DNA of 64,000 bases from positions 192,001 to 256,000 of the forward strand of contig CAWFUG010000011.1 of the NCBI GenBank assembly GCA_963818965.1. Direction: 5' to 3'. The DNA is from an uncultured Verrucomicrobiae bacterium. Its GTDB lineage: Bacteria > Chlamydiota > Chlamydiia > Chlamydiales > Rhabdochlamydiaceae. The first letter of the stretch is position 1. Every line of letters starts with the position of its first letter. This document shows, piece after piece, positions 54,001-57,000 of the stretch. Made by a program: the position numbers.

Positions 54001-57000
54001 TGCCCTTCCCGAAGTGGGGATTTTCGAATCGAAAGAAGCGAATGCCTTTGCGACAGGGCCGACGAAAAAGCGCTCTCTCGTCGCTGTTTCCACAGGATTG
54101 TTACAGAAAATGTCCCCAGGCGAACTCGAAGGGGTACTCGCCCACGAAATCACCCACATTGCCAATGGCGATATGGTGACGATGACGCTCATTCAGGGGA
54201 TCATTAACGCCTTTGTCATGTTCTTGGCGCGGATTTTGGCTTATGTCTTTTCTGGACTCGGACGGGACAGAAATCAGGGCGGCTCTGGCTCCTACCTTTC
54301 CTACTACGTGTTCGTCTTTTTATTCGAGATCGTCTTCATGGTCCTCGGCTCTCTCGTCATTTGCTGGTTCTCTCGCTGGCGAGAATTTCGCGCAGACAGC
54401 GGCGGGGCAGGTCTCGCAGGCAAGGAAAAGATGATCGCTGCCTTGGAGTGTTTGCAAAGAACGCAACAGATCCAAGATCCCCGTGTGGCTAAACCCTCTT
54501 TCCAGGCCTTCAAGATCTCTACTCAGAAGAAGAGCGGGCTGAGGGCTCTATTTGCAACTCATCCCCCTCTTGAAGATCGGATTGAGCGCCTGCGCAGCTT
54601 GCCGTTGCGTAGTTAAGATTTATAAATTCGTACCCTTAAGAAAACTCAAAAATGCGACCTAATGAAGAAAAAATAACAGGATATTATCCTGTTATTTTTT
54701 CTTGTCAGGCTTGGTGTAATGAGCTCAACTACTCCTGAGCTTGCACTTCCTCGGCTTGGCTCTCCCAATAGGTGTCGATTACCTTTTCGACAGCGCTGCG
54801 TAGGGAGGAGTTGACTTTGGGCAGGCGATTGACGACGGATTGAGCCCACTCGAAGTACTGATCGATCCGGGTTTGGCTCCAGTCGGAGGGAGGGTTGGTG
54901 AGGAGATCGGTCACGTTGTAGAGCTTGTCTGCCATCTTGATCTGTGCAGCTCCCTTCGATTTGTGGGAGGCTCCAGCCACTTGCATCCGTTTGCGCATTT
55001 CTGCGGAAAGGGATTTGTCATCTGTCATCTCTTTGACATAACCAGTGACGACGGGGCCAAATTTCTGTTGGAGCTCTTCGAAAGTCGTTTCTGTATCTTC
55101 TACTGTGTCATGCAAAAGAGCTCCTATGATCACAGCGGGATCCCTCACTTGTCCGATATCTACGAGATGATGCGCTACGCCGATCGGATGGGAGATGTAG
55201 GGGGTCTTCTCTTTGTTTTTACGCGTCTGGAAGCGGTGTTTTTCCGCAGCAAAATCGATCGCTCGGCTGATTTCCTGTATCTCGCTGACCGTCAATGCAT
55301 GTTCTTCAGAATAAGCCTTTAGAAGCGCTGAGGAGAAGAGATCGAATTTTTCCATGACGGTGTGGTCGTTGTGGGCGAGTTCTGCGACGTGGTCTCTAGA
55401 GCGCTTTAAAGTCTCCTCCACAACAGGATCTTCTCCAACCACCACTATCTCGACCTTTTTTTCCTCGAATACTTCCTCAGACATCCCACTTGCCGCAATA
55501 GAAACCATAACCAAAGATAAAACTAAACTTTTGCTCATACACCCCTACCCTATAAAGTTTTATTTGTAGGATAACAAACAAAGGGCAAAAAAACAACCCC
55601 CAAAAACATCTTTAAGAACCACATGACGGCGCCATTGCATAAAGGGAAAGTAATACCACAGAGAGGGAAAACCACAGAGAAAAAATTCATAAAACAAATT
55701 TTCTCTCTGTGGTTTCCCCTCTCTGTGGTAAAAACTTCCTTAAGAGCTGCGCGACAAGAGCGCAATGGGATGATCGAGAGCGACTAATGCATCTGCTTCC
55801 ATAGTAAAGACTTGGTGGGGATGGATGATGTCGCATAAATTTTTTAGACTCTCGCACTGAAGGACGATGAAATCGACTTCTGCCAGCGAAGAGAGGAGGG
55901 AAACGAACTCTTCATCGGGTGCGGAATCGCGGACATAGACGATCAATTTTTGAGAGGGGTCTTTAGAGGAGAGTTTTCTCAAGCTGCGGAAAAGACCTGT
56001 CGACATTCCGTGAGAACTATCGATACCGAAAACAGTGTAGCGCTTGCCCTTAAGTGCTTGTTGTAAGGCGAAGAGGTGCTCTTCGTCGAAGATTTTATTT
56101 TCGACGTCGAATTCTAAAAGGCGCTCTGCCACTTCAGAGAGGTTGATCCGCGCACACCCTAATCGCTCGATTGACATCCCTGCTGCGATGTTGGCCAGCT
56201 GAGCGCCGTAGCGGATATCGAGTTTATTGGCGACCGCAATGCTGATCATCGACAAGACAGTATCGCCCGCTCCGGTGACGTCTTTAACCTCTTTAGAGCG
56301 CACGGGAAAATCGAACTGTTGTCCCGCCTGATTGAAGAGGGAGATCCCCTGTTCTGAACGGGTGATCAGGACCATTTCCGCATGGCATGTATTTAAAATC
56401 AAAGAAGCCACTCGATCCAGAGGAGCATCTGGAGGGAGTTTTGCTGCGACATAAGCTTCTGCGAGGTTGGGCTTGATCACTGTAGCGCCCTCATACTTCG
56501 AAAAATCTGCCCCTTTTGGATCGACGATCACGGGGATCTCTTTGGCGCGTGCGCGATCGATGATCCCCTTCAAGAGCTCGCGCGACAAGAATCCCTTTGC
56601 ATAATCAGAGATCGCAATCGCTTGTACTTCTTCAAAGAGAGTAGGGAGTTGCTCGAGTAGCTGTTGCTCGAGTTGTTCTGGTAGCGGTGATACCGTCTCA
56701 AAGTCGACGCGGATCACTTGCTGCGATTCTGCGATCAGCCGATTTTTAACGGGCGTCTGATATCCCCTTTGCACGAGGAGATGGTCGATATCTACACCTT
56801 CTGATCGCAATGCGCTCTGGAGCTCTTCTCCTGCGCGATCATATCCGATCCGACCGACGGCGATGACTTCTGCCCCCAAAGAGACCAAATTCAAAACGAC
56901 GTTCCCTGCACCTCCGGGCCGACTCACCTCTTTTTCCACATGCAAGACAGAGACGGGTGCCTCTGGAGAAATCCGTTTGATCTTGCCCGTCGTGTAAGTA

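Follow-up and report, generated by a model that had tools for sequence, protein, structure and literature searches.

A MESH1-like HD hydrolase with a predicted Sec signal peptide in a chlamydial genome without a detectable (p)ppGpp synthetase

Introduction

Chlamydiae are textbook bacteria without a stringent response. The known small alarmone hydrolases (SAHs) of bacteria act in the cytoplasm alongside a synthetase or toxin partner, and periplasmic cofactor scavenging by a host-dependent bacterium is exemplified by e(P4), the NADP phosphatase of Haemophilus. Metazoan MESH1 (HDDC3) is a cytosolic protein of about 180 aa that occurs in organisms without a (p)ppGpp synthetase. The human enzyme (hMESH1) is reported to dephosphorylate NADPH to NADH. 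CoA, which yields dephospho-CoA, was published as a MESH1 substrate in 2026, hMESH1 being described as handling CoA less efficiently than NADPH or ppGpp, and a MESH1-PAPS complex is deposited in the PDB (9chy).

Exported members of the RSH superfamily have been described among the alarmone synthetases (SaEAS, VpEAS, RelV; about 600 predicted), which carry Sec signal peptides and are reported to act or be stored outside the cytoplasm (mBio 2025, PMC12691689). The view in the initial annotation of the locus studied here, that an exported RSH member would be new, is overtaken by that report. An exported RSH hydrolase was found neither in the literature searched nor in the accessible text of PMC12691689. 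Regarding Chlamydiae themselves, Table 2 of Atkinson 2011 gives zero RSH proteins in 15 taxa, and the string 'Chlamydi' was absent from the main text and five supplementary files (file 1 excepted) of Jimmy 2020 (PNAS). Here, we describe a chlamydial gene that joins a MESH1-type domain to a signal-peptide-like N-terminus.

A MESH1-type core behind an N-terminal addition

The window, a stretch of 64,000 nucleotides (C11:192001-256000), contains on its reverse strand an ORF of 269 aa (P0001; 54729..55538) that runs from an ATG to a stop codon at 54729-54731. A purine-rich stretch immediately 5' of the ATG (GGGTAGGGGTGT; 55539..55550, reverse strand) resembles a Shine-Dalgarno sequence, and a scan for promoters and terminators near the gene start returned nothing above shuffles. 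The encoded N-terminus, MSKSLVLSLVMVSIAASGMSEE, begins with a predicted Sec type I signal peptide (residues 1-20; 55479..55538, reverse strand; pLDDT 53-55). On the same strand, this is followed by an acidic linker of low model confidence (residues 21-37, SEEVFEEKKVEIVVVGE...; 55428..55478), two extra helices recognised in the predicted model and alignments (residues 38-78, H38-54 and H59-78; 55305..55427) and the MESH1-type HD core delimited by sequence and predicted-structure comparison (residues 84-262; 54753..55289). The structure model had a mean pLDDT of 92.1, with residues 1-37 unstructured. In contrast to cytosolic MESH1, the protein carries an 80-residue N-terminal addition. The 60-residue spacer of the initial annotation resolves in the model into a linker of ~17 low-confidence residues and two confidently folded, conserved helices that belong to the domain. 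Both helices are kept across the chlamydial family, whereas MESH1 has neither; SpoT (7qpr, chain 1-201) aligns from residue 56 of the model onwards. The linker region reads EEKPKVSxC...EC in most relatives, and that of the present protein has no Cys.

HD_4 (residues 93-193; 51.3 bits against a cut-off of 27.2, E 1.4e-13) and HD (E 5.3e-5) were the only Pfam domains over their cut-offs. No synthetase (PF04607), TGS or ACT domain reached its Pfam cut-off in the protein, which covers only positions ~1-123 of the 687-position NCBIfam spoT_relA model and is thus a single-domain RSH. The exported synthetases, in contrast, make alarmones with a synthetase domain. Among solved structures, the best relative by sequence was human MESH1/HDDC3 (3nr1, E 4.8e-46, residues 85-252 against chain 2-169; also 5vxa), and Drosophila Mesh1 (3nqw) matched at 5.9e-42; long RSHs matched at about 1e-13 and bacterial SAHs at about 1e-12. 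Overall, the metazoan structures (3nr1, 5vxa, 9chy, 3nqw) shared about 47-49% identity with the protein over ~170 residues and the same fold (rmsd 0.9-1.3 Å). Human MESH1 was the best solved match by fold as well: Foldseek superposed the model with an rmsd of 0.9 Å over 168-171 columns (TMt 0.91-0.94), and VIA gave Z 25.9 and an rmsd of 1.3 Å over 176 residues against human MESH1 (model residues 84-259). The SAHs of P. aeruginosa (6yvc/6z3n) and C. glutamicum (RelH, 7qoc/7qod) and the (p)ppApp hydrolase of B. caccae (7smg) are also single-domain HD proteins but stand much further away, with E values of ~1e-12 to 8e-4, identities of 23-28% and rmsd values of 2.1-3.6 Å.

Conservation extended to the active site. 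The metal ligands H117, H143, D144 and D204 correspond to hMESH1 H35, H61, D62 and D122, and the catalytic pair E147 and D148 to E65 and D66; phosphate/ribose contacts (Y114, N208, Y228) and base contacts (R106, K107) were also present. Across 60 family rows, H117 and H143 were each kept in 59, D144 and D204 in 58, E147 in 50 and D148 in 52. We compared the 16 metal, phosphate, ribose, base or nicotinamide contacts given for the hMESH1-NADPH complex in the accessible text of bioRxiv 10.1101/325266. Thirteen were identical (R24, K25, Y32, H35, H61, D62, E65, D66, D122, N126, W138, R142 and Y146), most of them present in at least 47 of the 60 family rows, and K97, H141 and E145 were changed, with Ala in place of K97, the 5'-diphosphate binder. 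Sequence (including the motif ALLHDTVED), fold, and metal and catalytic residues all match human MESH1, in agreement with the initial assignment as a MESH1-type HD hydrolase, and from fold and active-site residues the protein is predicted to be a catalytically intact, Mn2+-type MESH1-like nucleotide phosphohydrolase.

Absence of a synthetase and distribution among chlamydiae

A six-frame search of the genome (2.24 Mb, 12 contigs, 87.85% complete) with RelA_SpoT PF04607 returned 0 matches even at E<=10, and 12 of 14 control genomes matched. The only HD_4 match in the genome was the MESH1-like gene itself. PF04607 was present in just 8 of the 401 Chlamydiota genomes searched, so the lack of a (p)ppGpp synthetase first noted for this genome holds and extends over most of the phylum. 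Relatives of the MESH1-like gene occurred in 85 of 400 scored Chlamydiota genomes, in 44 of 89 from its own family and in 70 of the 334 high-quality genomes (>=90% complete), in line with the earlier distribution counts. Only three of the 85 carriers (G236, G369 and G267) also matched PF04607, and what counted as a relative in G236 and G369 is the HD domain of a long RSH. Incomplete assembly does not account for the missing synthetase. The earlier statement that Chlamydiae have no RSH at all reproduces the 2011 survey table faithfully, but it no longer stands, since a few Chlamydiota genomes contain synthetase-domain ORFs.

As this genome and nearly all carriers have no (p)ppGpp synthetase, the enzyme does not serve a stringent response of its own, and its substrate is very probably not a self-made alarmone. 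It could still be a true alarmone hydrolase that works outside the cell on (p)ppGpp or (p)ppApp from co-resident bacteria, exported synthetases or host tissue, a role consistent with an RSH hydrolase domain bearing the ED catalytic pair. MESH1 is reported to hydrolyse ppGpp (kcat/Km 9.46) as well as (p)ppApp (PMC7644958), ppGpp has been reported in metazoa (PMC7666150), and the exported synthetases imply that extracellular or periplasmic alarmones are real (PMC12691689). However, an obligate intracellular bacterium seldom meets rival bacteria inside its eukaryotic vacuole, and hMESH1 is described as not discriminating between guanine and adenine, so that guanosine alarmones are not indicated by the fold. 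Furthermore, a neighbourhood comparison found no synthetase, toxin-immunity or transporter genes adjoining the MESH1-like gene. We consider hydrolysis of foreign alarmones improbable.

Predicted export

Signal peptides were called by a crude rule (positive n-region, hydrophobic core of 7-15 residues, small residues at -3/-1, no lipobox Cys). A search for homologues returned 1280 at E<=0.001, the best 120 of which are nearly all 258-285 aa, and the rule was applied to the 118 of these with at least 240 aa. The protein itself passed, with an n-region of MSK, the h-region LVLSLVMVSIAA and small residues that would permit cleavage after residues 16-20; this segment has no Cys, so it is not a lipoprotein signal. 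Of the 118 homologues, 101 also passed, or 105 when internal Met starts were admitted; N-termini follow the pattern MKKYILPLL...GFA|NEEKPKVS, and a CxnC pair comes after the signal in 42 of the 118. Family conservation thereby extends what had been a by-eye call of a typical Sec signal peptide.

The alternative is that the hydrophobic N-terminus results from misannotation or serves as an anchor that stays uncleaved, and that the protein is a cytoplasmic housekeeping phosphatase for NADPH, CoA or pAp turnover, as its signal-less relatives may be. Consistent with this, 19 of 71 ORFs in chlamydial genomes failed the rule yet share the two-helix extension, the internal codons M11 and M19 offer alternative starts, and the rule was also positive for 277 of the 1479 ORFs of at least 200 aa in this genome (19%). 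Against it, none of 31 plain MESH1-type representatives of <=215 aa passed. A Lys/Arg start, a hydrophobic core of 10-15 residues, small residues and an acidic stretch recur in the 101 positive homologues at ~50-70% identity, an open layout that is not expected of untranslated sequence. Moreover, the 12-residue h-region is too short for a membrane span, and the positive n-region with an acidic stretch after the core predicts an outward-facing domain even if the signal were uncleaved. A cytoplasmic location is therefore very unlikely.

On these grounds, we regard the protein as very probably exported, and a cleavable Sec signal peptide would place its activity beyond the chlamydial cytoplasm, in the periplasm at the least. 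Export should not be generalised to all chlamydial relatives: the rule was positive in 38 of 43 ORFs from the genome's own family but in one of seven from family f6 and in neither of two fused forms from family f9 (52/71 overall). In a quick tree, signal-less relatives were interspersed with signal-bearing ones. Some non-chlamydial representatives also bear signals, one of them a psyllid (Cacopsylla) MESH1. The 19 signal-less ORFs count against a purely periplasmic role.

Candidate substrates and a possible role in cofactor scavenging

The NADPH and CoA activities of MESH1, its binding of PAPS and the CoA genes of this genome together suggest an extracytoplasmic 2'/3'-phosphatase. CoA must accordingly be added to the list of candidate substrates, beside the NADPH and alarmones named earlier. 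The genome encodes CoaE (144 bits); no DFP/CoaBC or CoaX was found in it, and coaD gave only sub-cut-off matches of ~21 bits. Chlamydia and Rickettsia, which have only CoaE, are predicted to take up dephospho-CoA (PMC8721197, PMC5615194). The enzyme, presumably made with a cleavable Sec signal peptide, may work outside the chlamydial cytoplasm and remove the 2'- or 3'-phosphate from host adenine-nucleotide cofactors in a scavenging step before uptake, much as the human enzyme dephosphorylates NADPH and CoA. In the most specific version, it would convert host CoA to dephospho-CoA, which intracellular bacteria with CoaE alone are predicted to import, and CoaE would rephosphorylate this product inside. 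We tentatively favour cofactor scavenging, located in the periplasm or the inclusion lumen, with a little less than even confidence; the conversion of CoA to dephospho-CoA within it is a possibility that we would hold only loosely. By functional analogy, the 5'-nucleotidases UshA and NadN are signal-bearing phosphatases that trim host cofactors for uptake, although their folds are unrelated to that of the MESH1-like protein.

Salvage of NADP to NAD was given less weight, since the genome encodes NadE and NAD kinase and does not obviously need it. A comparison of the CoA pathway with carrier status had no discriminating power: DFP was detected in 4 of 400 Chlamydiota genomes, and CoaBC is missing in 396 of 400 regardless. 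With relatives in only 85 genomes, the gene is no general requirement for CoA salvage, and no carrier-specific link emerged. The lower efficiency of hMESH1 on CoA, the Ala at the K97 position, the lack of a linked transporter and the uninformative neighbours in the genome's own family weigh against the cofactor reading.

That many environmental chlamydiae encode a MESH1-type enzyme which is conserved, intact and apparently exported would indicate that the hydrolase fold lives apart from alarmone signalling, and a possible exported hydrolase would complement the exported synthetases found in 2025. The enzyme is a candidate for filling a long-standing gap, the source of dephospho-CoA in CoaE-only intracellular bacteria, or could alternatively represent a drain on host NADPH or CoA. 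The broader proposal, that the family supplies the missing first step of CoA salvage in CoaE-only obligate intracellular bacteria and that orphan RSH-type hydrolases without synthetases are cofactor phosphatases and not relics of the stringent response, is speculative and rather unlikely.

Phylogeny, gene context and the possibility of a host-directed effector

In a quick maximum-likelihood tree, eukaryotic and bacterial plain Mesh1 proteins grouped together (41 rows, support 89), and the chlamydial family stood outside this group as a clade of 42 rows (SH-aLRT 97); the chlamydial proteins fell in separate clades beside plain Mesh1, with weak deep support. The top non-chlamydial matches were eukaryotic MESH1 proteins (Plectus, Bombus, Syphacia, Mesostigma and a chytrid). 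Recent capture of a host MESH1 gene was rejected, as the quick tree, weak in its deep branches, does not nest the chlamydial clade in eukaryotes. A contig search with a general pattern yielded, among the matches listed, mostly long RSHs and proteobacterial Mesh1, together with at least one extension-bearing locus (L023), labelled as a Verrucomicrobia MAG.

Gene order was conserved within the genome's own family (hldD-like, hldE-like, the MESH1-like gene, then a convergent gene for an M48/HtpX-type peptidase and a gene for an M20 peptidase) yet uninformative as to function, and contexts differed in other families. Two other genomes are of note. In G001, a signal-bearing copy lies between signal-bearing SOD-like and UshA/NadN-type 5'-nucleotidase genes on the same strand, which speaks for export; no UshA-type gene was found in the present genome. 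In G234, the start of a signal-less copy coincides with the stop of the type III export genes sctR/S/T (FliP, Bac_export_3, Bac_export_1).

The latter arrangement bears on the possibility that the protein is a host-directed effector which, after Sec export, leaves the bacterium by type II secretion or vesicles and acts in the inclusion lumen or host cytosol, signal-less relatives being delivered by type III secretion. It would drain NADPH and/or CoA or lower host ppGpp, weakening NADPH-dependent oxidative defence or shifting redox balance or ferroptosis. Such a role would account for both signal-bearing and signal-less forms. It is also consistent with the GspF-type type II secretion platform protein encoded in this genome and with a patchy distribution (85/400) typical of accessory effector genes. 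In addition, overexpression of MESH1 is reported to lower cellular NADP(H) (bioRxiv 10.1101/325266), and overexpression of dMesh1 to cause muscle atrophy mediated by ferroptosis, an effect rescued when CoA and NADPH are raised (JCI 2026). However, nothing found here points to transport past the periplasm, the protein showed no targeting feature of eukaryotic type, the type III link comes from one genome only, and the position of the chlamydial clade outside metazoan MESH1 in the quick tree argues against recent host-gene capture. The neighbours in G001, all signal-bearing, resemble periplasmic housekeeping genes. Overall, an effector role is unlikely, albeit the most probable alternative to cofactor scavenging.

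Between the upstream hldE-like gene and the MESH1-like gene lies a near-perfect palindrome with a 37-bp stem (55656..55728; RNA fold -59.8 kcal/mol, z -13). This is one copy of a dispersed repeat, with other arm copies at 13513, 27931-28004 and 32944-33017, and it may act as a transcription insulator or terminator.

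The query protein carries an intact MESH1-type hydrolase domain

The query gene (54729..55538, minus strand) encodes 269 aa from an ATG start, with a purine-rich stretch, GGGTAGGGGTGT, immediately 5′ of it. The protein passed the Pfam cut-offs for HD_4 (1.4e-13) and HD, and matched the long RelA/SpoT model of NCBIfam in its N-terminal hydrolase portion only. When searched by sequence against all solved structures, the top match was human MESH1 (3nr1; 4.8e-46, query residues 85–252), and Drosophila Mesh1 scored 5.9e-42; matches to long RelA/SpoT homologues (RSHs) and bacterial small alarmone hydrolases (SAHs) reached ~1e-13 and ~1e-12. 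An AlphaFold2 model built from 60 family sequences (mean pLDDT 92.1) was confident and all-helical for residues 38–268 and low for residues 1–37 (53–59). It superposed on human MESH1 with an rmsd of 0.9 Å over 168–171 columns (Foldseek) or 1.3 Å over residues 84–259 (VIA-align, Z 25.9), corroborating the MESH1-type assignment of the initial annotation.

Active-site residues named in the MESH1-NADPH structure paper (bioRxiv 10.1101/325266) were mapped by sequence alignment (query = human + 82). All four metal ligands and the ED pair were identical. The phosphate contacts Y32 and N126, ribose contact Y146, base contacts R24 and K25, and nicotinamide-stacking W138 and R142 (human numbering) were also present, whilst K97, H141 and E145 were changed. 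The retained contacts were also conserved in at least 47/60 family rows. Taken together, this makes an active enzyme with a pocket like that of MESH1 very probable.

Predicted export is a property of the query's clade

The region preceding this domain had been described as a Sec signal peptide plus a 60-residue spacer, but a division into three parts fits it better. A signal peptide was predicted at residues 1 to ~20 (MSK and a hydrophobic core of 12 residues, followed by small residues), with candidate −3/−1 cleavage sites after positions 16–20; because the N-terminus lacks Cys, it is not a lipoprotein signal. The supposed spacer comprised an acidic linker modelled with low confidence (residues 21–37) and two confidently modelled helices conserved across the family (residues 38–78). 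In most relatives the linker reads EEKPKVSxC...EC, and 42/118 homologues carry a CxnC pair there, the query being without any Cys. Structure alignments of the model to SpoT (7qpr, chain 1–201) and to a Leptospira SAH start at residues 56 and 37, inside the 'spacer', part of which thus corresponds to N-terminal helices of other RSH hydrolase domains that MESH1 lacks.

We applied a crude signal-peptide rule with four requirements: an uncharged run of 10–28 residues that begins in the first 15, a core of hydrophobic residues, no net negative charge in the n-region, and a −3/−1 site. The query was positive, as were 101/118 close homologues of at least 240 aa (105 if an internal Met start is allowed), compared to 0/31 plain MESH1-type representatives of up to 215 aa. 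Among ORFs of at least 200 aa in the query's genome, 277/1479 (19%) were positive. Homologues only ~50–70% identical to the query preserved the layout MKK / hydrophobic / GFA|NEE, which argues that the signal segment is translated and under selection. That the query is not exported at all seems very improbable.

Across 71 ORFs from 70 Chlamydiota genomes (one 136-aa fragment excluded), 52 were positive. This included 38/43 from the query's own family, Rhabdochlamydiaceae, whose five negatives still had N-termini that were hydrophobic by eye, and 3/3, 1/7 and 0/2 from families f23, f6 and f9, respectively. For the query's clade, predicted export is thus well supported, but it is not common to all chlamydial relatives. 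The two f9 ORFs are fused forms (L115 in G060, ORF 5145-6812, 555 aa; L116 in G053, ORF 5982-7466, 494 aa), in which the MESH1-like domain is followed by ~280 C-terminal residues that match nothing in Pfam at E ≤ 1e-5; both adjoin groES/groEL and an M3 peptidase gene.

Alarmone synthetases are rare among Chlamydiota

The RelA_SpoT synthetase domain (PF04607) gave no match in the query's genome even at E ≤ 10, whereas 12/14 control genomes were positive, so the reported lack of a synthetase stands. The accompanying caveat, that one could be missing from an incomplete assembly (2.24 Mb, 12 contigs, 87.85% complete; window G000:C11:192001-256000), does not. Only 8 of 401 Chlamydiota genomes were positive for PF04607 (7 above the cut-off). 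Relatives of the query protein occurred in 85/400 genomes (70/334 of those at least 90% complete), and PF04607 was also present in only three carriers, G267, G236 and G369, the last two of which counted as carriers through the HD domain of a long RSH (frames of 739 and 568 aa). Incompleteness is therefore not the cause of the missing synthetase, and the enzyme's substrate is no alarmone made by its owner.

The synthetase-domain loci, L015 (G236:C6:20733-24080), L014 (G369:C15:9661-12990) and L016–L019, include these two frames, which resemble long RSHs, as well as one of 185 aa found in the own-family genomes G077 and G098. They could be real exceptions to the absence of RSHs from Chlamydiae or contamination; G369 also possesses CoaBC. 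Separately, six matches within 30 kb of one genome (G271:C1:1892720-1922266), mostly short frames of 103–149 aa, suggest that the gene has undergone local duplication and decay.

A possible role in trimming host adenine cofactors

Human MESH1 is described as an NADPH phosphatase (bioRxiv 10.1101/325266) and as a CoA 3′-phosphatase yielding dephospho-CoA, its kcat/Km for CoA, NADPH and ppGpp being 3.3, 14.4 and 9.46 s-1 mM-1, respectively (JCI 2026). A crystal entry contains MESH1 with bound PAPS (9chy). The query's genome encodes CoaE; a genome search found neither CoaBC nor type III pantothenate kinase, and CoaD gave sub-threshold matches only. CoaBC was absent from 396/400 Chlamydiota genomes. 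CoaE-only Chlamydia and Rickettsia are predicted to need dephospho-CoA import by published reconstructions, which leave its source unstated (PMC8721197, PMC5615194). In another chlamydial genome, G001, a MESH1-like gene lies between a Fe/Mn SOD-like gene and a UshA/NadN-type 5′-nucleotidase gene (L114, G001:C1:217500-230200; consecutive ORFs 4359-5903, 6017-6799 and 6885-7559, all minus strand), and all three have signal-peptide-like N-termini, an arrangement that fits envelope-located nucleotide processing. The trio adjoins a divergent G6PD-OpcA pair.

Based on the MESH1 substrates, the CoA gene set and this neighbourhood, we tentatively favour the query as an extracytoplasmic trimmer of host adenine cofactors, with location and substrate both inferred. 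In its sharpest version, possible but more doubtful, an exported CoA 3′-phosphatase would supply dephospho-CoA for import. However, carriers are a minority whilst the CoA gap is universal, and signal-less and signal-bearing relatives are interspersed in the tree. A role in NADP-to-NAD salvage is weakened by the presence of NadE and NAD kinase in the genome. A host-directed effector, which we consider rather unlikely, would better fit one signal-less relative directly after type III export genes: in L109 (G234:C1:1563200-1576000), a 233-aa ORF (6025-6726) starts at the stop of sctR/S/T (FliP, Bac_export_3, Bac_export_1), a placement suggestive of type III secretion for this form. Passage past the periplasm is possible for the query, as its genome includes a gene for a type II secretion platform protein. 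The MESH1 pocket is described as not discriminating adenine from guanine (bioRxiv 10.1101/325266). We regard a true extracellular alarmone hydrolase as unlikely, and less probable than an effector.

Origin and novelty of the family

The nearest named homologues (best 120 of 1280) came from Rhabdochlamydiaceae and Parachlamydiales MAGs. Top non-chlamydial matches were eukaryotic MESH1 proteins; among the matches listed, beta- and gammaproteobacterial Mesh1 shared 45–51% identity over the HD core only. A quick maximum-likelihood tree of 104 rows and 178 columns, in which eight long-RSH or distant HD rows served as the root, recovered a main chlamydial clade (42 rows, SH-aLRT 97), the own-family subclade (14 rows, support 95), and a separate group of eukaryotic and bacterial plain Mesh1 (41 rows, support 89). 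The chlamydial family thus appears to be an old lineage beside Mesh1, which speaks against recent host-gene capture, with deep branches weakly supported.

Chlamydiae had indeed been scored without any RSH (zero in 15 taxa; Atkinson 2011, Table 2), and 'Chlamydi' was absent from the main text and five searchable supplementary files (of six) of Jimmy 2020. No description of the chlamydial family was found in full-text searches of the literature on chlamydial Mesh1/SAH/ppGpp or on SAH and signal peptides. The initial annotation's view that any exported RSH member would be new was overtaken by Ahmad et al. (mBio 2025, PMC12691689), who showed exported alarmone synthetases bearing Sec signals and predicted ~600, tied to various secretion systems; an exported RSH hydrolase still seems new. 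The observation is solid, comes as a surprise to the field and opens the dephospho-CoA question to testing.

Genomic surroundings

Upstream of the query gene lies an hldE-like gene (55740..57107), and an M48-peptidase (HtpX-like) gene (53696..54616) is convergent with it. Two nucleotide-transporter (TLC) genes, of a kind typical of chlamydiae, are on the same contig. Between the hldE-like and query genes is a palindrome with a 37-bp stem (55656-55728) whose RNA folds at −59.8 kcal/mol (z −13). It belongs to a dispersed repeat with arms CCACAGAGAGGGGAAACCACAGAGAG, further copies of which occur at 13513-13538, 27931-28004 and 32944-33017. The arms gave 7 matches at ≤3 mismatches versus 0 expected, and within this genome the repeat resembles an intergenic element of the REP or MITE type.
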